Below, one piece after another: positions 3,512 through 21,911 of a DNA stretch of 32,000 nt (position 1 is its first letter; the number at the start of each line of letters is the position of its first letter). Under the pieces are notes generated by a model. The model searched no databases. It had not been told where the DNA came from and saw only the letters and a list, made by a program, of their open reading frames with translations. A program made the translations under genes and the position numbers. Source of the DNA: Zestosphaera tikiterensis (GTDB lineage: Archaea; Thermoproteota; Thermoprotei_A; Sulfolobales; NBVN01). The DNA lies in NCBI GenBank assembly GCA_003056265.1, contig NBVN01000007.1:16381-48380 (forward strand). The letters are read 5' to 3'.

Positions 3512-5425
3512 TTACTTATGGATTACAGTTAACGTTGGGGTTTTCTCAGGTTCAGCAAGTCTAGTGATTATGACGTACTTACCGTATTTACTAAGTTCAG
3601 AGACAACTTTGTCGAATCTCCTAGGGTCGAAAGCTACTAAAGCTTCATCCGCTATAATGGGTGCCACACCTTGATATTCCTCAATGATCTTTAACCTATA
3701 GCCTACGAGTACGGCTATCAACGCTAGAGCTGTTCTCTCGCTAGTGCTTAAAACCTCAATCGGTTGTTCGTATTCTCTACCACTTGGGAATTTTCTAATA
3801 ACTCTAATATCAAATACTCGCTTAAGCATACCAGTAGTGGGGTCTTTCTCCTCCCTTTTATATAGCCTCACACCTTTAATCCAAGTGAAGCCCAGTTCTT
3901 TAATGACTTCAGAAGCTATTCTAGAGAACTCATCGCTTATACGTGATAGTGTTTCATATAATTCCTTCTCAACGTTTTCAAGTTCTTTACTTGTCTTTTC
4001 GATCTTCTCCCTTACTTCAGTTAATTTCCTACCAGCTTCACTTCTTTTAGCGATTTTTTCTTCTAAATCTCTTATGTGTTGCTCTACTTCACCAAGCCTT
4101 CTCTCTAGCTCAGCTCTTCTGTCAGCAGCAACGCGTTCTTCTTCTGTAAGTTGCTTTCTTAATTCTTCCAACTCTTTTTCAATTAACCCCCTCTCGTTTT
4201 TAAGCCTTGCTACCTCATCTTTATAATGTTCAAACGCTCTCTCAAGCTCTTCAATCCTCCTCTTAAGAGATGGTAGCTTAACATCCACGATTTCTCTAAC
4301 TTCGTTGTATTTCTTCTGTAGACTCTCTAACTCCTTCCATAATTCCTTAAGCTTTTCATTTGCGTTAGCTATCCTAACCTCATAATCTTTTACTATAGAC
4401 TCCTTACTCTTCATAACCTCGTCTTCTACTTCCACCTCACGTCTAGACCAGAACTCTTCAGGGTTTTCAATAGGTTTACCGCATACTGGACACGCAGATG
4501 CTTTTGTAGCTTTAGCTAGGTGTACAACTGGGATTCTAGCGTCTTGACCAACGAGATACTCTCTACGTTCGTTCTCCAGCTTCTTTATAAGGCTGTCAGT
4601 CCTGTCTATTTCTCCTTTAATCTTTGCTAACTCTTCCTCAGGATTCTCGTGAATGGCGTAAAACTCTCTAACCATAGTTTCATACCTCTCTAGATCCGCA
4701 CGTGCGTCATCTATAGCTTTCGCAGTAGTTGCTATGATGCCCTCAGGTTTCTCTAGGTCTTCTATTCTCTTACTGACTTCACCAAGTCTTCTATTGAGGG
4801 TGGCTATCCTATCTTGTAAACCTCTTACTCTTTCAATAGATATAGCCCTCAGCTTCTTAAGCTCTTCCTCTAAATCCTTCTTTAACTCCTCATATTTCTG
4901 TCTTTCCTCACTTACCTTCTTAAGTTCTTCAACATCCTTAAGGAGGAGGTTCTCCTCAGATTTTAGCTTATCTAACTCCTCCCTTAAGCTTTCCCTCATC
5001 TTTTCATACTCATCAAGCCTGAAGACCTTAACTAAGTAGTCAGTAATATCGGCGTTTGCTTGAGTTACAACCCTTCTGGCAACCTCCCCTAAGTAAGGAT
5101 CTAATATGACATACTTCAACCTATCGCTAACGATAACAGGCTTAGATTCAACCTCTAAAACCCTACCGTTTACTCTCTTAAACCTCCTAATGAATTCCCT
5201 ACTGTCAATAACTATCTTTATATATCCCTCATCAGCATCGATGTTTAGAAGCTGTTCAAGAGGGATAGTGTTGGGTGCGTACATCGCTAGTATAGCTTTA
5301 ACAAGGGAGGTTTTACCAGCAGCATTCGGTGCTACAACTTCGTTTAACCCTTCACTAAACTCAAACTTATGTTTGCCTATAAGACCTCCTACATTTTCAA
5401 CTTCGACCACTATCATGGGCACCAC
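3512..5425 (-). CDS. Rad50/SMC-like ABC ATPase with long coiled coil and central CxxC hook-like motif
   Basis: 637 aa. Walker A is APNAAGKTS (aa 32-40). About 400 aa are E/K/L-rich heptad sequence, with CPVCGKP at aa 312-318, exactly mid-protein. The C-terminal signature-like LSTSERTALAL and Walker B IIADEAL are present. No Mre11, kleisin or nuclease gene lies adjacent. Confidence 0.85.
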   Translation of the reverse strand: MVPMIVVEVENVGGLIGKHKFEFSEGLNEVVAPNAAGKTSLVKAILAMYAPNTIPLEQLLNIDADEGYIKIVIDSREFIRRFKRVNGRVLEVESKPVIVSDRLKYVILDPYLGEVARRVVTQANADITDYLVKVFRLDEYEKMRESLREELDKLKSEENLLLKDVEELKKVSEERQKYEELKKDLEEELKKLRAISIERVRGLQDRIATLNRRLGEVSKRIEDLEKPEGIIATTAKAIDDARADLERYETMVREFYAIHENPEEELAKIKGEIDRTDSLIKKLENERREYLVGQDARIPVVHLAKATKASACPVCGKPIENPEEFWSRREVEVEDEVMKSKESIVKDYEVRIANANEKLKELWKELESLQKKYNEVREIVDVKLPSLKRRIEELERAFEHYKDEVARLKNERGLIEKELEELRKQLTEEERVAADRRAELERRLGEVEQHIRDLEEKIAKRSEAGRKLTEVREKIEKTSKELENVEKELYETLSRISDEFSRIASEVIKELGFTWIKGVRLYKREEKDPTTGMLKRVFDIRVIRKFPSGREYEQPIEVLSTSERTALALIAVLVGYRLKIIEEYQGVAPIIADEALVAFDPRRFDKVVSELSKYGKYVIITRLAEPEKTPTLTVIHK

Positions 5426-5778
5426 CTGTTAAGCACGTGTTCGGTTATACCGAGCTTTTTAAGAGTTTCAACTTCGCTAGAGCTAAGACCCTTTGAAAGC
5501 CATCTTTCAGCAGCTCTCCTGATCTCCTTAGGTATCCAGTCTTCGTCAATATACCTAGCATACATCAGAGACGTCTGCAGACCCCTCTCCTTGGCTTTGA
5601 GATATGCTTGGTAAACGAAAGTAACTGAGTAACCATCGTCGAGACTGAGTAAGTATACAATATCGCCTCTCTTTAATACATCTACATGAATGGGATGCTT
5701 TTGCTTTATCTTGTTTAGCTTTGTCACAGTATTCCTATACAAGTTCAAATCTGGATCTTCAACCTTTAATATCAGCAC
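5413..5778 (-). CDS. hypothetical 121-aa protein with a C-terminal HTH-like segment, coupled to the SMC-like ATPase
   Basis: GTG start. Its stop overlaps the SMC-like gene start by 13 nt. The C-terminus LSSSEVETLKKLGITEHVLNRW resembles a short HTH. Confidence 0.6.
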   Translation of the reverse strand: MLILKVEDPDLNLYRNTVTKLNKIKQKHPIHVDVLKRGDIVYLLSLDDGYSVTFVYQAYLKAKERGLQTSLMYARYIDEDWIPKEIRRAAERWLSKGLSSSEVETLKKLGITEHVLNRWCP

Positions 5779-5842
5779 GTGTTATTTCACCAATAAATGG
5801 TAATGGTTTCAGAAGTATTTAAGCATTAATACAGAAATATTA

Positions 5843-5880
5843 AATAAAATCATTAATATAATAATATTAATGATTTTATT
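5843..5880. repeat. A/T-only palindrome with 17-bp arms and a 4-nt centre
   Basis: AATAAAATCATTAATAT-AATA-ATATTAATGATTTTATT, verified. It lies in the 129-nt gap between the AAA ATPase stop and the 121-aa ORF start. Confidence 0.9.
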
Positions 5881-5907
5881 AATACAAAAATATTAGAGCT
5901 TTAGAGT

Positions 5908-6666
5908 TCATATTACTTCGAGTCTCTCCAGCTTCTCTATGTAGTGCCTTATCACTATTCTCTCCACTTCTCTTGCGGATCTCGGCAACGGATTCATTGA
6001 CGTTATCTCCTCCTTAACTCTGTTGTAGGGTACTCCGAGTTCTCTGCACCTCTTCTCTGCTATTGCTAAAGCCGTATCTATGTCGAGGGGTTTGAACTCT
6101 ATCGGGTAGAGTCTGTCTATTAGTGCTTTATCAACTAACTCGTACCAGTTGGTTGTTGCTATGACTCCTATTCTAGAGGTGTCTAGCTCGTCAAGCATGT
6201 GGAAGAAGACGTTGTCTTGGGCTATATGCCAAGACTCTATGCCTTCTCTCCCGCGTGACATGAATATTGACTCTACGTCGTCGAAGAGTATTATGGTATA
6301 CCCCATAAGTTTTTTCGATTCTTCAAAAATCTCAACGATCCTTATCTCAGATTCGCCATATAGCGGTCTAGCTATGTCGGATGCGTCTACGAGGATAAGG
6401 TATACGTCCTTAAACTTTTTACCTAATTCCCTAGCGACTGCGTAAGCAAGGCTGGTTTTCCCTGTTCCAGGCTCTCCATAGAGTAGGAAACCTTTAATAC
6501 CTCTTTTAACTCCCTCTCTAAACTGATAGTAGAATGTCTTGAAGATTAGGTTGAATATCCTCTTATATTCCTCACCTACAAACCTACTGACGTCATAATC
6601 TTCAGGAACTCCAACAGCCTTAATTACCTTTAAAGGTTTGCTAAGTTCTTTAGCTCTTCTACTCAT
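5908..6666 (-). CDS. classical-clade AAA ATPase, single bare AAA module
   Basis: 252 aa. Walker A is GEPGTGKTS and Walker B is IILFDDVE. GESEIRIVEIFEE matches the GESE..vR.lF motif of FtsH/Cdc48/Vps4-type AAA proteins, and sensor-1 is VIATTN. There is no N-terminal substrate domain. Confidence 0.9.
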   Translation of the reverse strand: MSRRAKELSKPLKVIKAVGVPEDYDVSRFVGEEYKRIFNLIFKTFYYQFREGVKRGIKGFLLYGEPGTGKTSLAYAVARELGKKFKDVYLILVDASDIARPLYGESEIRIVEIFEESKKLMGYTIILFDDVESIFMSRGREGIESWHIAQDNVFFHMLDELDTSRIGVIATTNWYELVDKALIDRLYPIEFKPLDIDTALAIAEKRCRELGVPYNRVKEEITSMNPLPRSAREVERIVIRHYIEKLERLEVI

Positions 6667-7123
6667 AGGTTAATCTCCTTTTTCTAGATTCGTTTTCTAG
6701 GATATGCTTAATCATTATGTACGTGTCTTTAGAAATTTCATATTCTTCGCAATATCCAGCAACTACTCCACCCATAATTGACCCGCTCTCTACATCAAAA
6801 CGATCTTTTATGAATTTAAGCACCAGTTCATTTCTTTTTCTGCCTTCTGAATATTCTGAAGACGTAGAAGGTGAGGAGTACTTCTCTTCTATCGCATCTA
6901 TAGGTATAGATTCCTTATGTTCATAAACGTGTATGTACCCGTGATTGTAGCCCGGATCGAACACGACGTAGTACTTTCTATCTTTACTTACGTAGAATAA
7001 GTAAAGACGACGGAAGTGCTCTCCCCACTTAGTGTTTTCACAGATGTTTACTTTAATACCCTCTATAGATCCTTTCGTATCTCTCCCTAACTCTCCTAAC
7101 ATACCTTTTAACACCTTCTTCAT
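6659..7123 (-). CDS. hypothetical 154-aa protein
   Basis: Its stop overlaps the AAA gene start by 8 nt. No motif recognised. The start may be the second Met at 7102. Confidence 0.6.
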   Translation of the reverse strand: MKKVLKGMLGELGRDTKGSIEGIKVNICENTKWGEHFRRLYLFYVSKDRKYYVVFDPGYNHGYIHVYEHKESIPIDAIEEKYSSPSTSSEYSEGRKRNELVLKFIKDRFDVESGSIMGGVVAGYCEEYEISKDTYIMIKHILENESRKRRLTYE

Positions 7124-7961
7124 GCATTCTACACCATAGAATGTTTAACCTATATCCGTTTGAAGTAACTTGCTCAATGATGTCGTTACTTACCATAAAT
7201 TCAAACGCTTCAGTTCTAACGCTTCTCCACCACTCAATCGGCGGTCTTTTCTTATTTTCATCACTAAGGAAGTAGTTATCTACGTAGTTCACTCTAGCTA
7301 CCTCCAACACATCCCTGATTCTCATTGAATGCGATTCAAGACCTGATAAAGTGTATATCATTGGAAGCTTGATAAACCAAGGTATCACGGGTTTCTCGCC
7401 GAGAGTTCTATGTAGTTTAACTGCTGTGCTCATTATGTAGACACCTATTAACCCGCTTATGACACTTAGCATTTCTTTAAATTGTCTAGGGTCGATGAGC
7501 GTTACTAGGTGTTGAGCTACGGGACCTACAAGTTGGAAGAATTCATCGTTTATTCTATACACATATCGAGGATCGTCACTACTAACCAAGATTTTATAAT
7601 AAGGTAGCGGCTTCAGATAATCCAGCAATCTATCTGTCGGTATCTGAAAAGCATAGCTCCATTCTTCAAGTATGTCCTTAGATATGTACAGTTTTGTCAA
7701 GTCTTTACTATAGTACGCTTCACCACAACGGTCAACAACAGACCATAGAATCTTAAGAGGTTTCTGCCTGAAGAAGCGGTACCTGAGCAAGACGTCTCTA
7801 AACCTAGAAGCTAAAGCATATGCTTCACTAGGGCTAGAAAGTACGCGAGTTTCCTTCTTTGATGTTTGTGCGTTTAACTCATCAAGTATTGCAAGTATAG
7901 TCTCCTCTGTAAGGGGTTTGTAGTTTTTCAATGCCCAAACATTTACTGTTGGTTGAGCCAA
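7053..7961 (-). CDS. hypothetical 302-aa protein with an Arg-rich C-terminal tail
   Basis: Long ORF in an operon. It overlaps the upstream gene by 19 nt and the downstream ORF by 50-71 nt. No motif recognised. Confidence 0.7.
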   Translation of the reverse strand: MAQPTVNVWALKNYKPLTEETILAILDELNAQTSKKETRVLSSPSEAYALASRFRDVLLRYRFFRQKPLKILWSVVDRCGEAYYSKDLTKLYISKDILEEWSYAFQIPTDRLLDYLKPLPYYKILVSSDDPRYVYRINDEFFQLVGPVAQHLVTLIDPRQFKEMLSVISGLIGVYIMSTAVKLHRTLGEKPVIPWFIKLPMIYTLSGLESHSMRIRDVLEVARVNYVDNYFLSDENKKRPPIEWWRSVRTEAFEFMVSNDIIEQVTSNGYRLNILWCRMHEEGVKRYVRRVRERYERIYRGY

Positions 7962-8824
7962 GGTCTCCCCCTCGAAAGTCTTCTCTCCCTCTTCAACATG
8001 TAGTATCTACGGTAAGCTGGCGCTACCACCATGTTTGCGAAAGTTCCTGAGACTTCTAGGGGGTATGTCCTCACGATTATTTTGTTGTCGTAAAGCACTC
8101 CTATAGCTTTAAAGTATTCAACTTCAAACCTATCCCTTAAAGGTCTTAAAGACGCTATGAGTTTCTTAGCTTCACTCCACTCGGTTGGTTCTATCGTTGG
8201 TTTAGTAACTACCGTTCCATCTCTTTTAACGTAGGCTAAAGGCGTTAGCAAACCAATCATCGTGGTGTAGCTTTTTGGAAGTCTTGAAGTTTTCTGCATT
8301 ACGTAAAGTGAGCTTATACCTGACACAACTTTATGGGGGTAGGAAAACGCGTCTGATTCAAAACCTGCGAGTGATTTAAAATCAACTTTTTCAGCAACGT
8401 AAACCGCTACGTGTCTAATAAGCTCGTTGATTACGTCGGGTTTAAGCCTGATTTTACTTGGTGTTGTATTTACAACGTCGGCAAGCCTTAAGTCTTCCAT
8501 AGATTTAAAGGCTGACCTAACGTTATCGACCTCATCCGGTTCAAAACCCGGCACTTCATCCTCAGAAATTTCATATAGGTTCATATCCTTCTTTAGGAAG
8601 CCGTAGCTAGCCTTAGCTAAAGAATAAACAAGCACCTTCTCTAGGCTTTTAGAAGTGAAGGGAAGGAAGTAAATTAACCCAGCGAAAAACGAAGAAACGT
8701 CTACATGACCCTGCACAACAGCTTCAAGAGCTACATCAACTGTAATACCCGCAAACCTTCTTAAGGAAACCCATCTCTTATCTATATATCTATAATCCAC
8801 GTAAACTGACAAATGCACCACCAA
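7943..8824 (-). CDS. hypothetical 293-aa protein, first gene of the AAA sub-operon
   Basis: GTG start at 8824. A TATA-like AAAGTTTATAAGCT lies on the minus strand about 20-30 nt upstream. No motif recognised. Confidence 0.7.
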   Translation of the reverse strand: MVVHLSVYVDYRYIDKRWVSLRRFAGITVDVALEAVVQGHVDVSSFFAGLIYFLPFTSKSLEKVLVYSLAKASYGFLKKDMNLYEISEDEVPGFEPDEVDNVRSAFKSMEDLRLADVVNTTPSKIRLKPDVINELIRHVAVYVAEKVDFKSLAGFESDAFSYPHKVVSGISSLYVMQKTSRLPKSYTTMIGLLTPLAYVKRDGTVVTKPTIEPTEWSEAKKLIASLRPLRDRFEVEYFKAIGVLYDNKIIVRTYPLEVSGTFANMVVAPAYRRYYMLKRERRLSRGRPWLNQQ

Positions 8825-8938
8825 TAAGTATTTCTTTTTCGTAGCTTATAAACTTTATATCTAGCTAGTCGTAAAACTCAAAGCAACGTCTTAATTAAAC
8901 TTTATTTTAAGTAGATGAAGAAACAATGCCAAAACCCT

Positions 8939-9115
8939 TTATATTCTATTTATAAGGTATAATACATTGTTTAGTGCTCCAAGTTTGAAGTCGGCTCTAT
9001 TATCTCTCCTTAGTACTTCGTCGAGTGTTCTGCTGAGGTCTTTTCTCAGCTTAATCTTCTCTATTCTTACTTTCTGTATCGCTCCATTTGGTAGGGAGTA
9101 CTCGTATTCACGCAC
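8939..9115 (-). CDS. possible 58-aa ORF between the CRISPR array and the AAA operon (below the track cutoff)
   Basis: GTG at 9115..9113 and stop at 8941..8939. It reads VREYEYSLPNGAIQKVRIEKIKLRKDLSRTLDEVLRRDNRADFKLGALNNVLYLINRI. The reading frame is also open upstream of the GTG. No homology evidence. Confidence 0.25.
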   Translation of the reverse strand: MREYEYSLPNGAIQKVRIEKIKLRKDLSRTLDEVLRRDNRADFKLGALNNVLYLINRI

Positions 9116-9207
9116 TTCCTTCTCCCTACCTAGGTGGTTATAGTTTTTCCCTCAATCTTCAGCTATTAGGACATGAAGTTGAAGTATAGACCTAATCGGA
9201 TGCCACT

Positions 9208-9530
9208 CTTTCAGTCTTTTTCTATTGTTTCGATACCCGAGGTCTCTCAAAGCCCTCATAGTGTCGTAGATCAGCTGCGTCTTTCAGTCTTTTTCGATTG
9301 CTTCGGAGTATGAAGTGCTTGACTACGCCACGAAATACGTGGTGGGGGAGGACACCGCTTTCAGTCTTTTTCTATTACTTCCCTACTTCTTTCGTAGTCT
9401 TGAGGTTCTGCACTACGTGTTGCCTGAGCCATCTTTCAGTCTTTTTCTATTACTTCCCATATCCGCTTCTAATTTCGGCTTCGCCTTCCAGCCTAGACTC
9501 TAATACCTTTCAGTCTTTTTCTATTACTTC
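9208..9530 (-). CRISPR. cas-less CRISPR mini-array with 5 repeats of 24 nt and 4 spacers of 49, 53, 51 and 50 nt
   Basis: Repeats lie at 9208-9231, 9281-9304, 9358-9381, 9433-9456 and 9507-9530. The three rightmost are identical (plus strand CTTTCAGTCTTTTTCTATTACTTC), and the two leftmost each carry 2 mismatches. The reverse complement GAAGTAATAGAAAAAGACTGAAAG ends in GAAAG like crenarchaeal type I-A/III repeats, so transcription is on the minus strand with the leader to the right. A possible further decayed repeat lies at 9137-9160 (13/24 matches, correct spacing). Confidence 0.8.
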
Positions 9531-9658
9531 AAGTTATTGTTTGACGTAGGAGTATTTAAATATTTCCGTGGTGGTTTTCGGAAAGACCATCAAACACCAT
9601 CAGATGCCGACCATCACGTTGTCGGGTCGTAAACGTATGATTTATACTCCAGTTGTTA

Positions 9659-9682
9659 GAAGCAATCATAAAAGACTGAAAG
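9659..9682 (+). repeat. orphan CRISPR repeat in the opposite orientation to the array
   Basis: GAAGCAATCATAAAAGACTGAAAG on the plus strand matches the reverse complement of repeat 2 at 22/24 and the consensus at 20/24. It is separated from repeat 5 by 128 nt. Confidence 0.65.
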
Positions 9683-9763
9683 GAATCATCTAGTTAAATC
9701 GGATTAAGTCCGATTACCGGACACTTCACGTGTGCTTTGATGGACACCCCCTATAACCCCCTA

Positions 9764-9771
9764 TTTAAATA
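9764..9771 (+). promoter_or_regulatory. TATA box TTTAAATA within the conserved 13-mer TTAAATACTGTCC
   Basis: It sits 34-41 nt upstream of the ATG at 9805. The identical 13-mer occurs at 16511..16523. Confidence 0.45.
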
Positions 9772-9804
9772 CTGTCCGGTTACCGGATTAAGTGGGGTGA
9801 GTAC

Positions 9805-9966
9805 ATGACGAAAGGAGGAGAATCTATCTCTCCGCGGTTAATGCGTTCGGTTTACGCCACGTATAAAATCATATGCGGGCACGGCAGTATTAAGCTCGCA
9901 GATCTGGAAGTTCTGCAAGAACCTCAAAAAACTTGTAACAGAAAGGCTGTTTTTCTACTTAAATAA
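9805..9966 (+). CDS. possible 53-aa ORF (below the track cutoff)
   Basis: ATG at 9805 is preceded by GGTGA about 7 nt upstream and by the TATA box at 9764, and the stop is at 9964..9966. It reads MTKGGESISPRLMRSVYATYKIICGHGSIKLADLEVLQEPQKTCNRKAVFLLK. Confidence 0.35.
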   Translation: MTKGGESISPRLMRSVYATYKIICGHGSIKLADLEVLQEPQKTCNRKAVFLLK

Positions 9967-9981
9967 CTAAACTAATGTAAT

Positions 9982-10083
9982 TAGATTTTCTGGGTTTTAG
10001 GCATGAGAGTAAGCATACACTCTAGTAGAGTGTAAATTTACACTTAGGAAGGATTAGCTTTTCGAGAGCAAGCCTGAAAAATC
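9982..10083 (-). repeat. copy L of a ~100-nt element: TAGATTTTC, then palindrome GTGTAAATTTACAC, then ATTAGCTTTTC, then TGAAAAATC
   Basis: The reverse complement aligns with 23540..23649 and shares exact runs of 22 nt (ATTTACACTCTACTAGAGTGTA), 13 nt (GAAAAGCTAATCC) and 9 nt (GAAAATCTA). The strand label is relative to copy R. Confidence 0.75.
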
Positions 10084-10145
10084 ATTAAGGGTATTGCTTT
10101 TCCGTTGTTTCCCAACAGCCCCTAATACAGGAATATTAATGGTTT

Positions 10146-10266
10146 CATTATAACTGGGGTTAAAGGGGAAGCATTATAACGGGAATTATAGAGAAAACCA
10201 CTATAACTCTAGTTAATATGCACGCGCTGAAGCCGCTTTTTAAACCCCTGCATATTATAGTGGGGG
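10146..10266 (+). repeat. five iteron-like copies of (C)ATTATA(A/G)(C) upstream of the wHTH gene
   Basis: CATTATAAC lies at 10146 and 10172, ATTATAG at 10185, CACTATAAC at 10199 and ATTATAG at 10254. The first and last copies are followed by TGGGG. A TTTTTAAA TATA-like box lies at about 10237. Confidence 0.55.
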
Positions 10267-10291
10267 CGCGTTCACCCCAAGCTGGAGGTGA

Positions 10292-11320
10292 GTGAGGAGA
10301 GGTGGGGATGGGGTGTCCACGCGGTTCGATGTTGGGAATTATGTAGGCGAGGGTGTGGGGAGGAGGACGCACGCGACTGAGGATCCGCTGGAAGAAGCGC
10401 GGAGGCTGTACAGGGAGAAGGGGATCAGCTACACGCTGTGGTGGTTCATCAGAGAGATATGGGCTAGGCGTAGGCACGCGGTAAAGTTCGAAGACCTATT
10501 CAGGTTGCACCAGTACATCGCAGGTGCCCGGAGTAAGAACTCAACTAGAAAGGCGCTGAAGCGGTTGGAGGAATACGGGCTGATAGAGAACCTAGGCGAC
10601 GGGTACTACAAACCGCTTATCATGGATCAGGCAATAGTCGAAGGTTCCATAGACTTTAGCAGAATTAGAACAAGGGATCAGGTGTTAAGGAATCGCAAGG
10701 ACGCTGTTGAAACGTCCATGCAGCTGAAGGATATGCCTAGGGAGTTGATGCCTGTGGTTAAAGAAGCACAGAAGCTGATAGAGCGGGGCGATAAGTGGAA
10801 GGCGGTAGACCTAATAGCACACACGTTATTACCAATCCGCAAAACCGGAGTCCTTATAGCTAGGAAGGACGACCTGTTTTTATATTATGAGAGGAAGACG
10901 GATAAGATGCACATGATAAGGAGCTGGCGACTCACAGCACTACTAGACTTTCTAGGAATAAAAGATGAAGTACTAGTCGCACACAGACACAGCGAGGCCG
11001 ACGGCATTATCCGCAAGTTATTCGGTTCACACGACAACGCCCGGAGGCTACACTACTTACTAAAGGAGAGGGGCTGGTTCGAATACCCGGCTGAAAACTA
11101 TTTCTATAGAATCTTCGAGAACCCCATGACCCACGACTGGTGGATCTCGGTCTACAAGCTAAACAGAGAAACAGACAGAATGGAAGAAGACCTCAGAGTA
11201 GAGGTCGGCAGAAGCGCAATCACGGGGATTCAGGTGAAGGCCGGCACAATAGTGACGAGGGAGCACATTAAAAAAGAGAATGAAGACACATATTTCCGCC
11301 GCACGAAGGGGTGGATCTAG
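10292..11320 (+). CDS. winged-helix DNA-binding protein with a ~200-aa C-terminal domain of unknown function
   Basis: 342-aa ORF with a GTG start, so the true start is uncertain. STRKALKRLEEYGLIENLGDGYYKPL is a typical wHTH wing. G+C is visibly higher than in flanking DNA. Confidence 0.75.
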   Translation: MRRGGDGVSTRFDVGNYVGEGVGRRTHATEDPLEEARRLYREKGISYTLWWFIREIWARRRHAVKFEDLFRLHQYIAGARSKNSTRKALKRLEEYGLIENLGDGYYKPLIMDQAIVEGSIDFSRIRTRDQVLRNRKDAVETSMQLKDMPRELMPVVKEAQKLIERGDKWKAVDLIAHTLLPIRKTGVLIARKDDLFLYYERKTDKMHMIRSWRLTALLDFLGIKDEVLVAHRHSEADGIIRKLFGSHDNARRLHYLLKERGWFEYPAENYFYRIFENPMTHDWWISVYKLNRETDRMEEDLRVEVGRSAITGIQVKAGTIVTREHIKKENEDTYFRRTKGWI

Positions 11321-11368
11321 CTCTGAAGTGGCATAAAGAATGGAGTATCAGGCACTCCTTTCATTGTT

Positions 11369-11575
11369 TTAATGGGTTCTGAATTCCGGTTTGGACAATA
11401 TCAGTATTCCTAATACTAGTACTAGGGTTTGGAACATGGCAATGAACCCCGCTGGTAGATTCCCCGCAATAGCTTCAGAGATAGATTCAAAGTACTGAGC
11501 TTGATGTGAATCACTGCCGCCGTTAATCTGGGTACCGGGATCAGATTGCCTCCCAGATGATGAGATTGGCTTCAC
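11369..11575 (-). CDS. possible 68-aa protein with a C-terminal TM helix, downstream of the M48 protease
   Basis: GTG start 43 nt after the protease stop. The C-terminus FIAMFQTLVLVLGILILS is hydrophobic. No other support. Confidence 0.3.
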   Translation of the reverse strand: MKPISSSGRQSDPGTQINGGSDSHQAQYFESISEAIAGNLPAGFIAMFQTLVLVLGILILSKPEFRTH

Positions 11576-11617
11576 TATGCTCTGAGTATCTTAATAGTAC
11601 TTGAGGTTCTGCTTGTC

Positions 11618-12622
11618 TTAGTGTACTGGTTTTCCTTTCTGCTCTTTGTCGGGGGTGCCGAGTTCTATCCTTGTGTGATACGTCATTAGCAAGGCTAGAC
11701 GTAGCGGTAAAGGTGGGTGAGTATAGTAAAAGGGGTTTATAATCAGGTCTAGGATCCATTTTGGGAAGTTCCAGCTGTATTTCAGTAGTGTGTTATATAT
11801 TTGCTTAGGCGTGGCTGAAGCAGTAATGACGTCTATTATCTCTTTTGCTTCCTTTATTTTTACGTTGTCTATGAATGATGAGTACCTTCTCAACGAACCA
11901 TATACATAAGTTTTTATTAATGCTGCCATAAAGGGTTGTAAACCAGACTTTAGAAGTGCTTCCCTATCGCACTCGTGCTCATTAACCCAGCTAATCACTG
12001 TTGCGGAGAGGGTTATGGCAGCTTCGGAAAACACTAAATATAGAATTGTTAACATAGATATAAGTGAAATTTCACGTAAGAGAGTTATCAGAAGGGCTAT
12101 GCCTGTTACCGCATAAAGCCAAGAATAATCTATAAAAGACGTAAATAAACCAAGCTTACGATGCTTCGCATGACCCGATTCATGGTGTATAACTGCTTTG
12201 AGTTCTTCTTCGGAAAGCACTTCTTTAAGACGGGAGGAAACACATATTATCTTGCCCCGATAGTCATACCAAGCATTTGCGACGTCGCTGCGACAAACGA
12301 TATATTTAATTCCGTCTAACTCCTCCTCTTTTCTTTCTAAGCACCTGAGGCTAAAACGCAACCTTATTGCACGTACCAATACTGCCATCACAAACAGTAC
12401 AACTACTAATATTATGATCGACTGTAGTACTAACAGCACGACGCATAAAAATAAGGCAAAAACAGCTACAGAAAACGCGATGGCTCTCTTCCTTGCTACC
12501 TGAGGATTACCGCCGAAAACGTAACTTCGATAATGCTGTGATAATTCATAGAGAAAGAACAAGTACGCTATGGCTTGAGCGAAAGCAGCTACAGTTATGG
12601 ATAACAGGTCGAGACTATCCAC
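11618..12622 (-). CDS. membrane zinc metalloprotease, M48 (HtpX/Ste24-like) family
   Basis: 334 aa. There are several N-terminal TM helices, the HExxH motif in VIHHESGHAKH, further TM helices, and the C-terminal YTHPPLPLR matching the M48 THPxxxxR motif. Confidence 0.85.
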   Translation of the reverse strand: MDSLDLLSITVAAFAQAIAYLFFLYELSQHYRSYVFGGNPQVARKRAIAFSVAVFALFLCVVLLVLQSIIILVVVLFVMAVLVRAIRLRFSLRCLERKEEELDGIKYIVCRSDVANAWYDYRGKIICVSSRLKEVLSEEELKAVIHHESGHAKHRKLGLFTSFIDYSWLYAVTGIALLITLLREISLISMLTILYLVFSEAAITLSATVISWVNEHECDREALLKSGLQPFMAALIKTYVYGSLRRYSSFIDNVKIKEAKEIIDVITASATPKQIYNTLLKYSWNFPKWILDLIINPFYYTHPPLPLRLALLMTYHTRIELGTPDKEQKGKPVH

Positions 12623-13221: not shown

Positions 13222-13557
13222 ATGGTGATAAGTGGTATAGGGTTATCTACACCAGAAGAGCCTAAAGACGTTAAGAACTTCATAAAGTCCGTAAGAGCAG
13301 GACTTGGCGAAAGTCCCAATATGGACTACGACTCTCTCGCTGTTTGGAGTTTCAATAGACTTCCCAAATATCTCTGGAAGCTCTGGGGGGATGAGTTGAT
13401 AAAGAGGGGTATTACATGGCAGAAGTTTCTAAGGATTTTGAAGCTCCATACTATAGATATTGTAGAGTGGGCGTTAAGGGATTCACTAAGCTGGGAGGAG
13501 CTTGTTAAAAGGATCGAGAAGAGCATTGATAGTTATTCGAGGAGTGGGAATAGATAA
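13222..13557 (+). CDS. hypothetical 111-aa protein, first gene of the methyltransferase operon
   Basis: Its stop and the MTase start share TAATG (1-nt overlap at 13557). No HTH or other motif recognised. Confidence 0.6.
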   Translation: MVISGIGLSTPEEPKDVKNFIKSVRAGLGESPNMDYDSLAVWSFNRLPKYLWKLWGDELIKRGITWQKFLRILKLHTIDIVEWALRDSLSWEELVKRIEKSIDSYSRSGNR

Positions 13558-14774
13558 TGGGTTGTGCGTACCATGTAAAAGATATGCATTTAGTCAGACT
13601 GACTTACCCTGGAAAGATTAGCAAAGAGGAACTCTATAAAATAGTGCAACCTGCAGAATTAAAGGTCGTGAAGGAGTTTAGAGTAGGCAAGCCACTTATA
13701 GATGATGGTTGGAGAAACATGCTGATACTAGGAGATAATCTTCCCGTTCTTAAAGCTCTTCTACAAGATGATAGAATTCGTGGAAAGGTTAGACTCATAT
13801 ACATAGATCCACCCTTCGGTACAGGATCTATTTACCGCGGTAAGAGGCATATAAGTGCAAGCTCAGAGGATGAAATAGCTTATCAAGATATGTCGCTAAG
13901 CCCAGAATACCTAGAGTTCCTGCGAAGGAGATTAATATTTCTATACAATTTGTTAGCCGAAGATGGATCTATATATGTTCACATGGATGTAGATGCTATA
14001 CACTATGTGAAGGTGTTAATGGATGAAATATTCGGCATAGAGAATTTTGCAAATGATATAGCCAGAGTTAAATGTAACCCAAAAAACTTTGAGAGAAGAG
14101 CTTACGGGAATATTAGAGATTCGATACTCTTTTACGCTAAGAACTATGGAAAAAATGTATGGAATGAGCCTAGAGAGCCTTATACAGAAGAGGAAATTGA
14201 GAGACTCTTTCCTAAAGTGGATAAAGATGGCAGAAGATATACCACAGTACCTCTACACGCTCCTGGCGAAACAAAGAATGGCCCTACAGGTCAATCTTGG
14301 AGAGGGATCAAACCACCGCCTGGGAGGCATTGGAGATATCCTCCAGAAGTCCTAGATGAATTAGATAGAAGGGGTCTTATTGAGTGGAGTAGCACAGGCA
14401 ACCCTAGACTTAAGATATATGCTGATGAATACGTAAAGAGAGGTAAGAGAATACAAGATGTGTGGCTGAACTATAAGGATCCAGTCTATCCTGAATATCC
14501 TACAGAGAAAAACTTAGAAATGGTTATGAAGATTGTTGAAGTGTCTAGTAATGTTGGAGATATTGTATTGGACGCATTCTGCGGCTCAGGCACCTTGGCT
14601 GTCGCAGCTGAGAAGCTAGGCAGGAAGTGGATATGTATAGACATTTCACCGCTTGCTATAGAGATAGGTTTGAAAAGAATATTGGAGCTCAAGACTTATA
14701 GACCCTTTGTACTAGTTAATGCTACTGGTAGAGAGTTACCTGAAAGGCTGAGAAAGTTCCTCGAAGGTATCTAG
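13557..14774 (+). CDS. beta-class DNA methyltransferase (N6-adenine or N4-cytosine)
   Basis: 405 aa. Motif IV IYIDPPFG precedes motif I VLDAFCGSGT, which lies near the C-terminus. This circular permutation is typical of the N6_N4 MTase family (M.PvuII/M.RsrI type). Confidence 0.9.
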   Translation: MGCAYHVKDMHLVRLTYPGKISKEELYKIVQPAELKVVKEFRVGKPLIDDGWRNMLILGDNLPVLKALLQDDRIRGKVRLIYIDPPFGTGSIYRGKRHISASSEDEIAYQDMSLSPEYLEFLRRRLIFLYNLLAEDGSIYVHMDVDAIHYVKVLMDEIFGIENFANDIARVKCNPKNFERRAYGNIRDSILFYAKNYGKNVWNEPREPYTEEEIERLFPKVDKDGRRYTTVPLHAPGETKNGPTGQSWRGIKPPPGRHWRYPPEVLDELDRRGLIEWSSTGNPRLKIYADEYVKRGKRIQDVWLNYKDPVYPEYPTEKNLEMVMKIVEVSSNVGDIVLDAFCGSGTLAVAAEKLGRKWICIDISPLAIEIGLKRILELKTYRPFVLVNATGRELPERLRKFLEGI

Positions 14775-15626
14775 GAGATACTCCTCTAGGAAAAGGGCCG
14801 ACATAACAACTTTATCACCTACAGCTACCTTTATCACTCTGTCTGTATACTTCTTATAATACCATACAATGCCATCAATTAGAGCTATGCCCTTTATTTT
14901 TACTCCTTTCATGACTCTCAGCATCTCCTCCATTTTTTCAACGAAGTTAAGTGTATTGCCTAGGTCTCTGTTTTGGGATCCACCTGGCGTGCTCAGAAAC
15001 CTTGCCTCACCCACTATATAGATATCTTTAACTTTAGCTATTACATCGCGATTAAAGAACCCCTGTTCTGGTTCTTTTAGTCCAAGTCTATTCTTTATGA
15101 AATCTGCTATTGATTCATCTGAACCTGCGTAAATACATATTTCATTGCTCCTACATTCTAGTAGCTGATTTGGATTGTTTACAACGTTAAAAGGCTCTTT
15201 TCTAAACTTTCTATTTATCCACTCCTTGAACTTCGCTCCAAGCATTCGGTTTATATCTTTAGGTCTTTCTACTCCTCTTATTATGTTGTCTAGACCCAGA
15301 GAAGCTGTGGCCTCGGCTAATATCCTAATAATTTGAGGGTTACAACTTATGACCTTTTTACGATTAGAATCTCCTAAGTGACGCAATAGAGCTGCATAAG
15401 GATGTTCTATAGGGAATGGATAATCCTTTAAACTAATTAGAAGAGTAACTAAATCTTCGTATTTTTCGCTTTGATAGAGACGTACTATCTGGTTCTTAAC
15501 GTTATTTGGAAGAGGCCTTTCAGGAGGAAGTTCTGCAGGATAAATCTCAAGCAATTTATCAAGATAATTGCTTTTCTGAGCTAATTCCCATGTTTTCAAC
15601 GTCCATGGATTAAGCCTATCTAACAA
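14736..15626 (-). CDS. hypothetical 296-aa protein; candidate type II restriction endonuclease partner of the methyltransferase
   Basis: It is convergent with the MTase and the 3' ends overlap by 39 nt. A possible PD-(D/E)xK-like segment is RDVIAKVKDIYIVGEARF (D...E-x-R). The functional call is mainly contextual. That it is a real coding gene is considerably more certain than the listed confidence, which refers to the endonuclease assignment. Confidence 0.55.
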   Translation of the reverse strand: MLDRLNPWTLKTWELAQKSNYLDKLLEIYPAELPPERPLPNNVKNQIVRLYQSEKYEDLVTLLISLKDYPFPIEHPYAALLRHLGDSNRKKVISCNPQIIRILAEATASLGLDNIIRGVERPKDINRMLGAKFKEWINRKFRKEPFNVVNNPNQLLECRSNEICIYAGSDESIADFIKNRLGLKEPEQGFFNRDVIAKVKDIYIVGEARFLSTPGGSQNRDLGNTLNFVEKMEEMLRVMKGVKIKGIALIDGIVWYYKKYTDRVIKVAVGDKVVMSALFLEEYLLDTFEELSQPFR

Positions 15627-19538: not shown

Positions 19539-19868
19539 TTAATACTCGCATATAACAACGCATGGTGTGAGGACCTCAACGTTTTTAACTAACCTACCCT
19601 CGAAGTCTCTAACTCTTATGGCTGCCGCGTTTTTATCCTTCCTAACGAACACTTCAGCTTTCAAACCCTTCCCCCTCTCAACGCTTTTTAAGATTTCGAA
19701 AACACCGAATTGAGTGATTAGTTGGATGGACTTCATAGGCTGCCTACCGTAGAAAACCTCCTCAGCCTCAACCCTTAACCGAGTTGAAGTTAAGCTGGTG
19801 TAGCTGAAGCCAACGCTACGCGTTGAACCCACCCTTAACCCCCTCAACCACTTTGATAAGCTTAACAA
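19539..19868 (-). CDS. hypothetical protein with uncertain start (an internal ATG at 19736 would give 65 aa)
   Basis: The annotated TTG start and the first six codons (MLSLSK) are simply the translation of the repeated motif at 19851..19869, so the N-terminus is doubtful. No motif recognised. Confidence 0.35.
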   Translation of the reverse strand: MLSLSKWLRGLRVGSTRSVGFSYTSLTSTRLRVEAEEVFYGRQPMKSIQLITQFGVFEILKSVERGKGLKAEVFVRKDKNAAAIRVRDFEGRLVKNVEVLTPCVVICEY

Positions 19869-20385: not shown

Positions 20386-21426
20386 ATGAAAATTCTAAAC
20401 ATTGAAGCGTTATTTCATGACTACATACCGTCGTCTCTACCCTGTAGGGAAGTTGAGTACAGTCGAATTGCTGAAGAATTCATGTTTGTTGATAAGGGGT
20501 TTATGCCTTCGAACATCGTTGTTTTAGGTCCGACGGGAAGCGGTAAGACAGTTACTGTTAGGAAGGTGTTAAGTGATATGAAGGTGAATTACGTCTATAC
20601 GGTCGCTGATAAGTTGGCGTACGCGACGCTCGTGTCTATTGCGGAGAACCTAATTAAAAAGAGGTTGTGGGGTTTCTCGTTTGCGGATGTGTGGCGAAGG
20701 CTTGATGAGGCGTTGGATAAGAACGTAACTATAGTGATAGATGAGGCGGAGAGGTTTATAATGAAGGACGAGAGGAGTGATGAGCTCCTCTACTATCTAA
20801 GCAGGAGACCTAAGACGAGCGTTATCCTCATAAGTAAGGTGATGAACGTCTTAGATTACGTGCGGGATGCGGGGGTTCGGTCCTCCCTACGTTCTAAAGT
20901 AGTTGTTTTCAAACCTTATAACGCTGATGAGTTGCTGAGGATCTTAACTGAGAGGGCGAGGGAGGCGTTCGAAGGGGATTTTGCTGAGGAGGGTGTGTTA
21001 AGCTACATTTCAGCTATAGCGGCTCAACGCGGAGGGGACGCGAGGTACGCGATAGACATCTTAAGGGAGGCTGTGAAGTGGGCGTTAAAGACTGGAAGCG
21101 AAAAGATAACGCTGGAGCACGCTGAAAAAGCGAAGAAAAGCGTTGAGGAGAGGTACGTGGAGGAAAGCATGTCAGCACTTTCCACAGCACAGAAGCTAAT
21201 GCTTCTCGCTGCGGTGAAGTCAAGAACTGTTGGGGAGGCTTACAGAAACTTCAACGAGTTAGCGATGAAATACCTCGGAACAACCTACAGCGAAAGAAGG
21301 TTAAGAGACATCCTCGGGGAACTGGAGGAGATGGGCTTCATCTCAATAAAGAGAGAAAAGAAAAGCTGGATCATAGAGAAAAGCACGTGGCTGCCGAAAA
21401 ACATAGAATCATACCTAACACCCTAA
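20386..21426 (+). CDS. orc1/cdc6: Orc1/Cdc6 replication initiator, a short and divergent 346-aa form
   Basis: Walker A is GPTGSGKT and Walker B is IVIDEAE. GGDARYAIDILREA is the hallmark Orc1/Cdc6 sensor-2 region. The C-terminal winged helix is RLRDILGELEEMGFISIKRE. Confidence 0.9.
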   Translation: MKILNIEALFHDYIPSSLPCREVEYSRIAEEFMFVDKGFMPSNIVVLGPTGSGKTVTVRKVLSDMKVNYVYTVADKLAYATLVSIAENLIKKRLWGFSFADVWRRLDEALDKNVTIVIDEAERFIMKDERSDELLYYLSRRPKTSVILISKVMNVLDYVRDAGVRSSLRSKVVVFKPYNADELLRILTERAREAFEGDFAEEGVLSYISAIAAQRGGDARYAIDILREAVKWALKTGSEKITLEHAEKAKKSVEERYVEESMSALSTAQKLMLLAAVKSRTVGEAYRNFNELAMKYLGTTYSERRLRDILGELEEMGFISIKREKKSWIIEKSTWLPKNIESYLTP

Positions 21427-21456
21427 CACAGACACCCCCGGGGGTATTTCCGGTAA
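21423..21456 (+). repeat. ORB-like origin element, left arm of a 34-nt inverted repeat
   Basis: CTAACACAGACACCCCCGGGGGTATTTCCGGTAA overlaps the orc1 stop codon. It matches the reverse complement of 21878..21911 at 33/34. The TTCCGG dyad plus G/C string is reminiscent of crenarchaeal origin recognition boxes. Confidence 0.75.
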
Positions 21457-21515
21457 AAATCGAAACTGTAAACTCTGCAATTTTAGTTTTATCATTCTCT
21501 CATTATAGAACCTTC

Positions 21516-21655
21516 TATTAATAAAAATTAAAAATAAAAATTTAATAAAAATAAAAATAAAAAATAAAAATAAAATTTAAAATTAATTAAATAAATTAAA
21601 AATTATTTCTTATTCTATATTAATTATATTATTTTTATTTAATGAATTCTTTATT
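21516..21655. other. duplex unwinding element of a replication origin
   Basis: 21516..21608 is an uninterrupted 93-nt run of A/T with phased A-tracts (ATAAAAATAAAAATAAAAAATAAAAATAAAA). Only a handful of G/C occur up to 21655. Confidence 0.8.
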
Positions 21656-21828
21656 TAGAGATCATGATACAAACCGCGCCTTCAATGCTTTTGCTTATTT
21701 GCACATCGGTCTCTTTTGAAGATTCTCATGTGATAGTATGGAAGGATTTTCGGTTTTTTGATGGTGGTTTTGAATTTTGTTTTTATTTTTGTGTTTTTTG
21801 TTTTGTTTTCGTTCTCTTTATTGTTTGT

Positions 21829-21846
21829 TTTGATAAGCTTATCAAA
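21829..21846. promoter_or_regulatory. copy d of the motif, a perfect 18-bp palindrome TTTGATAAGCTTATCAAA
   Basis: The sequence is self-complementary. It lies inside the origin, 32 nt left of the right ORB-like arm. Confidence 0.65.
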
Positions 21847-21877
21847 GAACTTTTCTGATCTGCATATCTTTTAGTGG

Positions 21878-21911
21878 TTACCGGAAATACCCCCGGGGGT
21901 GTCTGCGTTAG
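21878..21911 (-). repeat. ORB-like origin element, right arm of the 34-nt inverted repeat
   Basis: TTACCGGAAATACCCCCGGGGGTGTCTGCGTTAG. A further ORB-like sequence, GGTTTCCACTTGAAGTGAACTCCCCC, lies at about 21937..21962. Confidence 0.75.

Follow-up and report, generated by a model that had tools for sequence, protein, structure and literature searches.

An archaea-specific SMC-related protein encoded with a AAA ATPase, a small protein and predicted winged-helix proteins in a recurring archaeal operon

We analysed a stretch of 32,000 nucleotides from the archaeon Zestosphaera tikiterensis (contig NBVN01000007.1, positions 16,381 to 48,380 of the forward strand; "the window" below means this whole stretch), in which a preliminary description made from the letters alone had noticed six co-oriented genes for a bare AAA ATPase, a Rad50/SMC-like ATPase and four unassigned proteins, and had proposed a role in defence or in the maintenance of mobile genetic elements (MGEs). 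The largest product, of 637 aa, is by its profile match a full-length member of a named family, that of archaea-specific SMC-related proteins (ASRP; ClsN/coalescin, Sph), and no orphan. The ASRP family itself is already known; what is new is an ASRP system with a deeply conserved, previously unrecognised partner set, in which the ASRP is encoded with a AAA ATPase and a small protein and, in the clade of the window protein, with two predicted winged-helix proteins. We tentatively take the cluster to encode an accessory, horizontally mobile, ASRP-based DNA-binding machine, which a AAA ring would remodel or reset and whose target would be extrachromosomal or mobile DNA, or else the very element in which the operon resides.

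The 637-aa protein matches the NCBIfam model of the family (NF045487) from end to end (model positions 1-593 of 593), with an E-value of 5.9e-103 and 345.5 bits against a cutoff of 300. The zinc-hook, Rad50/SMC-like fold recognised in the preliminary description therefore stands, whereas its unplaced status does not, since the protein passes the ASRP model. The family was defined in 2022, takes in ClsN of Sulfolobales and Sph1/2 of Halobacterium, and was described as having an N-terminal Walker A, a C-terminal Walker B, a long coiled coil and a central CxxC zinc hook (PMC9389158). This is also the layout of the window protein, in which Pfam coiled-coil families match residues about 120-520, between the two Walker motifs, and the CxxC, already noticed from the letters at the middle of the coil, is a CPVC at residues 312-315 of 637. 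Within the close clade, Walker A, the CPVC hook and D593-E594 of Walker B do not vary. The euryarchaeal ASRPs that we recovered (from a Halobacteriota metagenome-assembled genome, MAG, and from Methanosarcina sp.) are 24-25% identical to the window protein.

Other identities for this protein fared poorly. The best Rad50 model of NCBIfam scored 58 bits against a cutoff of 700, arcadin-4 scored 45.9 bits against a cutoff of 860 (E 2e-12), SMC models matched weakly or via the coiled coil, and the JetC models of PADLOC matched at about E 1e-7 in the coiled coil only. When the ASRP profile was searched against PDB sequences, the N-terminal head of archaeal Rad50 was the best match. We know of no subunits comparable to kleisin/KITE proteins or to Mre11 for the ASRP family.

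The six genes and their products

All six open reading frames (ORFs) were recovered on the minus strand with exactly the coordinates and lengths of the preliminary description, in two blocks with gene overlaps of 19, 71, 8 and 13 nt and a spacer of 129 nt:

7943..8824, minus strand: 293-aa gene, predicted tandem winged-helix protein, paralogue A of an upstream "X" slot; TTG start
7053..7961, minus strand: 302-aa gene, predicted tandem winged-helix protein, paralogue B
6659..7123, minus strand: 154-aa gene, accessory; its slot, flanked by the 302-aa and AAA genes, is variable
5908..6666, minus strand: 252-aa gene, single-domain classical-clade AAA ATPase
5779..5907, minus strand: spacer of 129 nt, 81% A+T, carrying an inverted repeat
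5413..5778, minus strand: 121-aa gene, small "middle" protein; GTG start
3512..5425, minus strand: 637-aa gene, ASRP
8825..8960, minus strand: region upstream of the first block and its putative promoter region, with a TATA-like TTTATAA and with GGTGG ahead of the TTG start, as read from the sequence
5309-5332, minus strand: ASRP Walker A, APNAAGKT, residues 32-39
4481-4492, minus strand: ASRP zinc hook, CPVC (CPVCG), residues 312-315, at the midpoint
3644-3649, minus strand: ASRP Walker B DE (ADE, residues 592-594), canonical
6454-6477, minus strand: AAA Walker A
6346-6360, minus strand: AAA pore loop YGESE
6268-6282, minus strand: AAA Walker B DDVES

These genes are far beyond chance ORFs, because each of the five core proteins has homologues (E 1e-13 to 1e-140) that are kept in the same order on independent contigs. 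For the ASRP, a start at the ATG at 5416 is likelier than one at 5425: a database protein (P0063) that is 98% identical to the window ASRP has 634 aa, and the ATG at 5416 overlaps the stop of the 121-aa gene as ATGA, through which the two genes are, by this reading, translationally coupled. A look-up of the exact ASRP sequence gave no match, probably because the start annotated in databases is the ATG three codons further downstream. Rfam and tRNA scans of the window were empty. Profile and structure searches of the cluster found no nuclease, Mre11 or recognisable kleisin, just as none had been visible in the preliminary description, and a Pfam scan found no metallophosphoesterase. A search of PHROGs with the cluster proteins gave coiled-coil and generic AAA matches only, and weak PADLOC matches to the mad3 and mad8 components of MADS could not be interpreted.

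The 252-aa protein had been described as a bare classical-clade AAA module with a GESE..F motif, and this is borne out by its match to Pfam PF00004 (E 2e-22; 80.3 bits against a gathering score of 21.2) and by a PLYGESE...F motif. It keeps Walker A, an aromatic-Gly (Tyr-Gly) pore loop 1, the sensor-1 Asn and one Arg finger, and its closest solved relatives are the D2 domains of Cdc48/VCP (E 2e-25). The classical-clade motifs are invariant in the 12 family members that were aligned, the invariant positions being GxxGxGKT, YGxSE, DDxES, WH..Q..FFH, TTN and DR. In PADLOC the protein matches the TRIP13 (E 5e-17), IetA, AbiO and Nhi models. A TRIP13-HORMA module of the CBASS type was considered and rejected, there being no HORMA or CD-NTase match in the cluster and Cdc48/VCP ranking first in the PDB.

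The two small proteins remain as unassigned as they were. The 121-aa protein has no significant match in Pfam, NCBIfam, PHROGs, PADLOC or PDB sequences, and the same holds for the 154-aa protein, whose best PADLOC match is PDC-M04B at E 0.005. The 293- and 302-aa proteins, which had likewise been said to match nothing recognisable, are paralogous to one another (hhalign probability 95.7%, E 9e-9, 245 columns), and their confident AlphaFold 2 models (pLDDT 89.3 and 93.6, respectively) predict tandem winged-helix folds: in both, we read from the DSSP strings a helical part at the N-terminus, two modules that resemble winged helices, and a long basic helix at the C-terminus. The 293-aa protein has 55 homologue clusters, all of about 280 aa and without Pfam matches; the 302-aa protein has 62 clusters at 48-64% identity, without annotation, and its profile has only 10 matches in 1.84 billion representative proteins, all from its own small family. 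In Foldseek searches of the PDB nothing was found at E < 0.6 for the 293-aa model, its local matches being MukE (probability 0.69) and JetB (0.47), at E 1.3-3, and ArsR/MarR winged-helix proteins. For the 302-aa model there was nothing at E < 0.05, and local matches were to the N-terminal winged helix of Rio2 (probability 0.84), the centromere binder AspA (0.77) and MarR/ArsR/Rrf2 regulators; this model had no match in BFVD. Thus the profile and structure searches proposed in the preliminary description assign the ASRP and the Cdc48-D2-like AAA protein, and leave the other proteins without a significant match in the searches run.

Conservation, distribution and partner types

The order ~280 aa, ~300 aa, AAA, ~120 aa, ASRP is common to ten independent close loci (the window, L001, L002, L003, L013, L109, L110, L112, L114 and L115), and the flanks differ in every one of them; the five-gene unit is a real, recurring operon. 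The preliminary description had treated all six genes as one candidate unit, and this holds for five of them and not for the 154-aa gene. Its only homologue is in L002/L012 (40% identity, E 9e-24), while its slot is empty in L001, L003, L013, L109, L110 and L112 and occupied by unrelated ORFs of 45 and 91 aa in L114 and L115. The conserved unit is therefore one of five genes with a variable sixth slot.

Close relatives are rare. A scan of one genome per species found them in three of 185,579 species, namely a Thermoprotei MAG, a Desulfurococcales MAG and the korarchaeon Ca. Methanodesulfokora washburnensis, whose copy is nested in the tree among crenarchaeal copies; the relatives of the window are Desulfurococcales/Ignisphaera-like MAGs. 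The same scan also found distant ASRPs at 21-26% identity, and in eight distant loci in this range of identity the ASRP is part of a trio with a AAA protein and a small protein:

L009 and its duplicate L010: metagenome contigs
L014 and L018: Heimdallarchaeota
L015: Dehalococcoidia MAG
L016: Archaeoglobales
L017: Ca. Deferrimicrobium MAG
L022: Thermoplasmata

In all eight, a AAA homologue lies upstream of the ASRP on the same strand, an ORF of 92-148 aa stands between the two, and a gene for 243-349 aa stands in front. The AAA homologues are found at phmmer E-values of 1e-46 to 1e-56 and score 304-391 bits with the family profile. AAA is the most conserved gene of the cluster, being 78-82% identical where the other genes are 34-59% identical, and it is still 37-45% identical in loci whose ASRP is only 21-26% identical. 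A protein of 92-148 aa is encoded directly upstream of the ASRP in every AAA-type locus, and hhalign shows homology between the small proteins of the close loci and those of the distant ones (probability 86.8%, E 4e-6, 90 columns). Distant ASRP members were too divergent for use in the alignment for locus scans, and L029-L108, from a metagenome scan with the AAA alignment, were left out as ordinary AAA proteins caught by the generic Walker A pattern.

Some observations on the distant loci stand on their own. The Deferrimicrobium locus (L017, 4665-6587) has two tandem paralogous X genes, a parallel to the 293/302-aa pair, and the X proteins of L009 (1000-1890) and L016 (1406-2323) have N-terminal Cys-rich CxxC motifs with a zinc-ribbon-like look. 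ASRP relatives also occur on contigs binned as bacterial, in MAGs of Fidelibacterota (L019, L021), Dehalococcoidia (L015) and Deferrimicrobium (L017); no AAA gene was detected in the two Fidelibacterota loci, and the other two have the AAA-small-ASRP layout. These could reflect transfer across domains or mis-binning.

Other distant ASRPs, of a Halobacteriota MAG, Methanosarcina, Methanosalsum and Methanoperedens, adjoin a gene for RdfA (PF21811). In a rough neighbour-joining tree of ASRPs, which contained no ClsN sequences, ASRPs of the RdfA type fall into a single clade, with those of the AAA type making up the others, and by this tree the type of partner tracks ASRP phylogeny. In Haloferax volcanii, Sph3 and its neighbour RdfA are both needed for rod shape and motility, and overexpression of Sph1 leads to rods (PMC10869688). 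One may therefore ask whether the window cluster is a cytoskeletal or cell-shape module like Sph3-RdfA or like arcadin-4 of Pyrobaculum, with ASRP filaments or scaffolds that the AAA protein disassembles. The arcadin-4 match has an E-value that would suit this explanation and a score far below cutoff, as given above. Moreover, none of the six proteins matches PF21811, the 121-aa protein is no relative of RdfA (hhalign probability only 0.2-0.3% against the RdfA alignment), and where Sph-type ASRPs pair with RdfA (PMC10869688), the window type carries AAA, small-protein and winged-helix genes. The predicted winged-helix subunits and the palindromic site described below also point to DNA rather than to the cell envelope, and we regard a cell-shape role as very improbable.

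The paper that defined the family found no consensus among the genes flanking ASRPs, although its Table S1 lists an "AAA family ATPase", "VCP-like ATPase" or "proteasome-associated ATPase" 1-3 ORFs from some of them, in Bathyarchaeota, Desulfurococcaceae, Ignisphaera, Methanodesulfokores and Heimdallarchaeota LC_3 (PMC9389158). The association of ASRP and AAA was thus visible there and went unrecognised because neighbours were compared by annotation name. We found no paper describing an ASRP-AAA partnership; the 2020 classification of ABC ATPases (Krishnan et al.), which lay outside that search, might mention the neighbourhood. The partnership of an ASRP with a AAA protein, a small protein and two winged-helix proteins hence seems to be undescribed.

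The internal spacer and the genomic surroundings

The spacer between the two blocks had been called A/T-only and palindromic. The palindrome is there, as a perfect 17-nt inverted repeat (5843-5859 / 5864-5880), and the composition is 81% A+T rather than A/T-only. Reading from the stop codon of the AAA gene, one meets a T5 tract (5886-5890), then the palindrome, a TATA-like TTAAATA (5816-5822) about 41 nt ahead of the GTG start of the 121-aa gene, and GGTGA (5787-5791) 9 nt ahead of that start. The spacer may thus hold a putative terminator, operator and promoter; if so, the 121-aa/ASRP pair would be controlled separately, as a unit of its own. A scan for bacterial sigma-70 promoters and hairpin terminators, a model not applicable to archaea, stayed at background level. 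Equivalent spacers in other loci have their own inverted repeats or repeated motifs of differing sequence: inverted repeats of 15 nt in L002, 13 nt in L003 and 9 nt in L013, a 10-nt inverted repeat with five CTAGAAA copies in L112, repeated TTATCA motifs in L110 and, in L016, an inverted repeat around GAATTC seen by eye, to which the palindrome search gave no score. This combination of constant position and changing sequence suggests co-evolution with a fast-evolving DNA-binding subunit, and the repeats look like candidate operators or loading sites.

The neighbours of the cluster in the window are the following:

2256-2930: serine resolvase, 224 aa, downstream of the ASRP gene
9208-9532, with leader to about 9570: CRISPR-like array, five repeats of about 25 nt, minus-strand end GAAAG
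13557-15626: convergent type II restriction-modification pair, with an N6/N4 DNA methylase (E 3e-43) and a Tsp45I-family endonuclease (E 2e-37)
20386-21426: Orc1/Cdc6 gene, with Cdc6_lid (E 3e-20) and a Cdc6_C winged helix

The serine recombinase, CRISPR array and restriction-modification system around which the preliminary description had built its context are therefore all present. The array repeats are spaced 73-77 nt apart and its leader carries a TTTAAATA box; no cas genes were identified among the window ORFs scanned, and adjacency to CRISPR was dropped as a conserved feature because such an array lies beside no other cluster locus. Also downstream of the ASRP gene, at 253-1428, is a gene for a 391-aa protein with a nucleotidyltransferase domain (NTP_transf_2/Polbeta).

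The flanks of the loci with neighbours of defence or MGE type read as follows:

Window: resolvase, CRISPR-like array, restriction-modification
L003: two methylases, Mrr, GIY-YIG
L109: Tsp45I fragment, upstream of the cluster; MazE
L110: PIN, AAA_14/DUF4143
L112: DUF5906, resolvase-type helix-turn-helix (HTH)
L114: CsaX
L115: two AAA_15/AAA_21 ATPases, DUF3226, SLOG/DprA-like gene

It may be added that the Tsp45I fragment upstream of the cluster in L109 recurs there in a locus unrelated to the window, and that in L115 the stretch directly downstream of the ASRP operon (5721-12084) carries a series of defence-like genes, for a SLOG/DprA-like protein, for two AAA_15/AAA_21 ABC ATPases and their small partners, and for DUF3226 and ATPase_2. 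From this context, a role of the cluster in defence or in MGE maintenance may be suggested.

A further neighbour bears on a different explanation. Directly after the Orc1/Cdc6 gene there is a 34-nt inverted repeat, 97% complementary (21423-21456 / 21878-21911), that encloses a 421-nt A/T-rich stretch with AATAAA tandem repeats, and 20386-21911 as a whole, which is 12.6 kb away from the ASRP operon, is apparently built like a replication origin of archaea. Orc1/Cdc6 is flanked on either side by copies of a palindromic motif, TTGATAAGCTTATCAA with close variants, five in all (at 19850, 19878, 21827, 22150 and 22246), which may be putative binding sites linked to the origin or to orc1 regulation. 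The proximity echoes the clsN gene, which lies near oriC2 and was proposed to have arrived together with an origin (PMC11344861). Could the cluster, then, be a coalescin-like organiser of the host chromosome, which replaces the condensin absent from Crenarchaeota and structures poorly transcribed regions, with the winged-helix proteins and the AAA protein as loader and unloader? The ASRP belongs to the family of ClsN (PMC9389158), ClsN is essential and defines the B compartment, the lineage of the window's relatives was described as having no SMC-like proteins except Rad50 (PMC11344861), and L001 sits among housekeeping genes. A core organiser should, however, be widespread and syntenic, whereas among the 185,579 species scanned close relatives were found only in the three named above, one of them korarchaeal, with all flanks different, and many carriers outside Crenarchaeota belong to phyla reported to have SMC as well (PMC9389158). 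Furthermore, clsN of Sulfolobales has a conserved housekeeping synteny (Fur, nucleoside hydrolase, metallophosphoesterase) and no AAA gene (Table S1, PMC9389158). None of these synteny genes is in the window, and on its neighbours, no tree with ClsN having been made, the window ASRP was set apart from the ClsN/coalescin clade. We therefore think a chromosome-organising role improbable.

Proposed function and comparison with known systems

The likeness to Lamassu calls for the closest scrutiny. In both systems an upstream catalytic gene is followed by a small middle component and then by a Rad50-like ABC ATPase that has a CPxCG hook and measures about 600-650 aa (about 630 aa in the window), the Lamassu order being LmuA-LmuC-LmuB, with LmuB the zinc-hook ABC ATPase (10.1101/2025.03.14.643221; PMC10586767). 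LmuC models are HTH-like and its gene lies just upstream of that for LmuB (PMC12663957), the distribution is sporadic and the neighbourhoods defence-like as in the window module, and the best PADLOC matches of the ASRP are LmuB models (E 1.6e-19). One may thus envisage an abortive infection of the Lamassu/ABC-3C kind, which also takes in DdmABC, in which the ASRP dimer and the 121-aa protein would hold the AAA protein monomeric until foreign DNA (ends, replication intermediates) releases it to form a hexamer, a toxic or virus-blocking unfoldase. Since AAA ATPases are active only as oligomers such a release-and-oligomerise switch is plausible, and the fast divergence of what would be the sensor-side subunits, next to a conserved effector-side AAA protein, would suit it too.

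On the other side, the best-scoring LmuB stretches lie in the coiled coil (within residues 120-523) rather than over the head domains; no LmuB chain is among the 40 PDB matches of the ASRP profile, and Lamassu structures are present in the PDB fold library. PADLOC matched neither the AAA protein to LmuA nor the 121-aa protein to LmuC, so that only order and sizes agree, and the ASRP keeps DE in Walker B where LmuB usually has E changed to Q (PMC10586767). Lamassu swaps its effectors freely (PMC12663957), its upstream protein being a swappable nuclease, protease or SIR2 joined to the LmuA C-terminal domain, whereas the putative effector here is a AAA protein invariant over deep divergence; and the one or two extra winged-helix genes have no Lamassu counterpart. 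On balance, we hold a Lamassu-like function to be rather unlikely.

We return, therefore, to the DNA-binding machine that we tentatively prefer. The ASRP would dimerise by its CPVCG hook and bind or tether DNA, with the 121-aa protein as a "middle component" seated on its heads or, close to the hook, on the coiled coil. The 293/302-aa pair would form a heterodimeric subunit, either KITE-like or a sequence-specific DNA binder, which may also bind the locus-specific palindrome ahead of the 121-aa/ASRP sub-operon, and the AAA protein would assemble as a ring that remodels, resets or unloads the complex. The role of the whole would be to organise, silence or maintain mobile or extrachromosomal DNA rather than to cut it; there is no nuclease or other toxic effector in the conserved gene set. 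Constant composition over deep divergence, the absence of effector swapping and the strongest constraint on the AAA protein argue that AAA would be integral to the machine, and fixed composition with strong AAA constraint favours a machine over a sensor with a swappable toxin. Likewise, patchy distribution and the kind of neighbours favour a role in conflict or with MGEs over a core chromosomal one. Two precedents were also counted in favour: ASRPs are found on 17 haloarchaeal megaplasmids, and ClsN both binds and compacts poorly transcribed, transposon-rich regions of the chromosome and may stem from an extrachromosomal element (PMC11344861). The phenotypes of ClsN and of Sph1/Sph3 are of chromosome organisation or cell shape, and not of defence (PMC11344861, PMC10869688).

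Several points weigh against this preferred reading. In all 12 aligned AAA members Walker B is DDxE instead of the canonical DExD, an Asp replacing the Glu, which may mean slow or no ATP hydrolysis and would poorly fit a processive unfoldase; it could point to an ATPase that works slowly, as a switch. A similar DDxE occurs in the D2 ring of NSF, which does not hydrolyse ATP. The hints at a KITE subunit (MukE and JetB, and a Pfam MksE match of the X protein of L009 at E 0.03, with 15 bits against a cutoff of 27), which in themselves count in favour, converge in these models and profiles, yet the resemblance is below significance, and profile searches of PDB sequences with the 293-aa, 302-aa and distant X proteins found nothing. 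No homology between the distant X proteins and the 293/302-aa pair was detectable by hhalign, so that only the trio is demonstrably ancient. The defence-island or integrated-element context of the preliminary description holds in part: a defence or MGE marker lies within 10 kb in seven of the ten close loci, a count that stands without a background rate, and L001 is embedded among housekeeping genes. The module was not found on IMG/VR viral contigs, among INPHARED phages (302-aa protein and ASRP) or on PLSDB plasmids (AAA), and its link to mobile elements thus rests on its neighbours. Finally, the assembly of the complex, its DNA binding and its phenotype are proposals at the level of sequence.

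A bolder generalisation would be that ASRPs of the AAA type are the core of an unrecognised class of SMC-like holo-complexes, in which a zinc-hook ABC ATPase has a Cdc48-like AAA ring and a small middle subunit as its obligate partners. Such a class would be conserved between Crenarchaeota and Heimdallarchaeota, would have moved to some Bacteria, and would act as an ATP-driven loader and unloader of DNA tethers or as a nuclease-free immunity against MGEs; this is possible, if somewhat doubtful. The ASRP family includes coalescin, which shapes the chromosome compartments of Sulfolobus, and Sph3, without which Haloferax lacks its rod shape, and the AAA-small-ASRP trio and the predicted winged-helix subunits are concrete candidates for proteins that load, regulate or remove zinc-hook SMC-like proteins. 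Since the module is also found in Heimdallarchaeota, it is relevant to the origin of the cooperation between SMC-like machines and Cdc48-type remodellers. Should it prove to be an anti-MGE system, a nuclease-free effector logic would be added to SMC-based immunity (Lamassu, Wadjet), and the operon is small enough for direct expression and testing.

The partner set differs from those of Lamassu, Wadjet and Rad50-Mre11, as had been pointed out in the preliminary description, and the cluster could be placed in none of them. With MukBEF, MksBEF(G) and Wadjet it has in common an SMC-superfamily ATPase encoded beside predicted winged-helix accessory proteins, and Wadjet also has a fixed subunit composition. 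However, Wadjet/MksBEFG have a hinge where the window ASRP has a zinc hook, JetA, JetB and JetD had no matches in PADLOC, neither a kleisin (MukF/JetA) nor a Toprim nuclease (JetD/MksG) was found, and the AAA ATPase has no counterpart in any of these systems. The Rad50-Mre11-HerA-NurA operon is alike in encoding a zinc-hook coiled-coil ABC ATPase with a ring-forming ATPase, and membership in Rad50-Mre11/SbcCD is ruled out by the Rad50 score of 58 bits and by the absence of Mre11/SbcD or a NurA nuclease; HerA is a DNA translocase of the HerA/FtsK type, and a classical-clade AAA protein is typically a protein remodeller. Compared with Cdc48/VCP/p97, the window AAA protein is a single 252-aa module with neither N-domain nor second ring; it shares pore loop 1, Walker A, the sensor-1 Asn and one Arg finger with the D2 domain, and differs from it in the DDxE Walker B and in a family-specific WH..Q..FFH segment.

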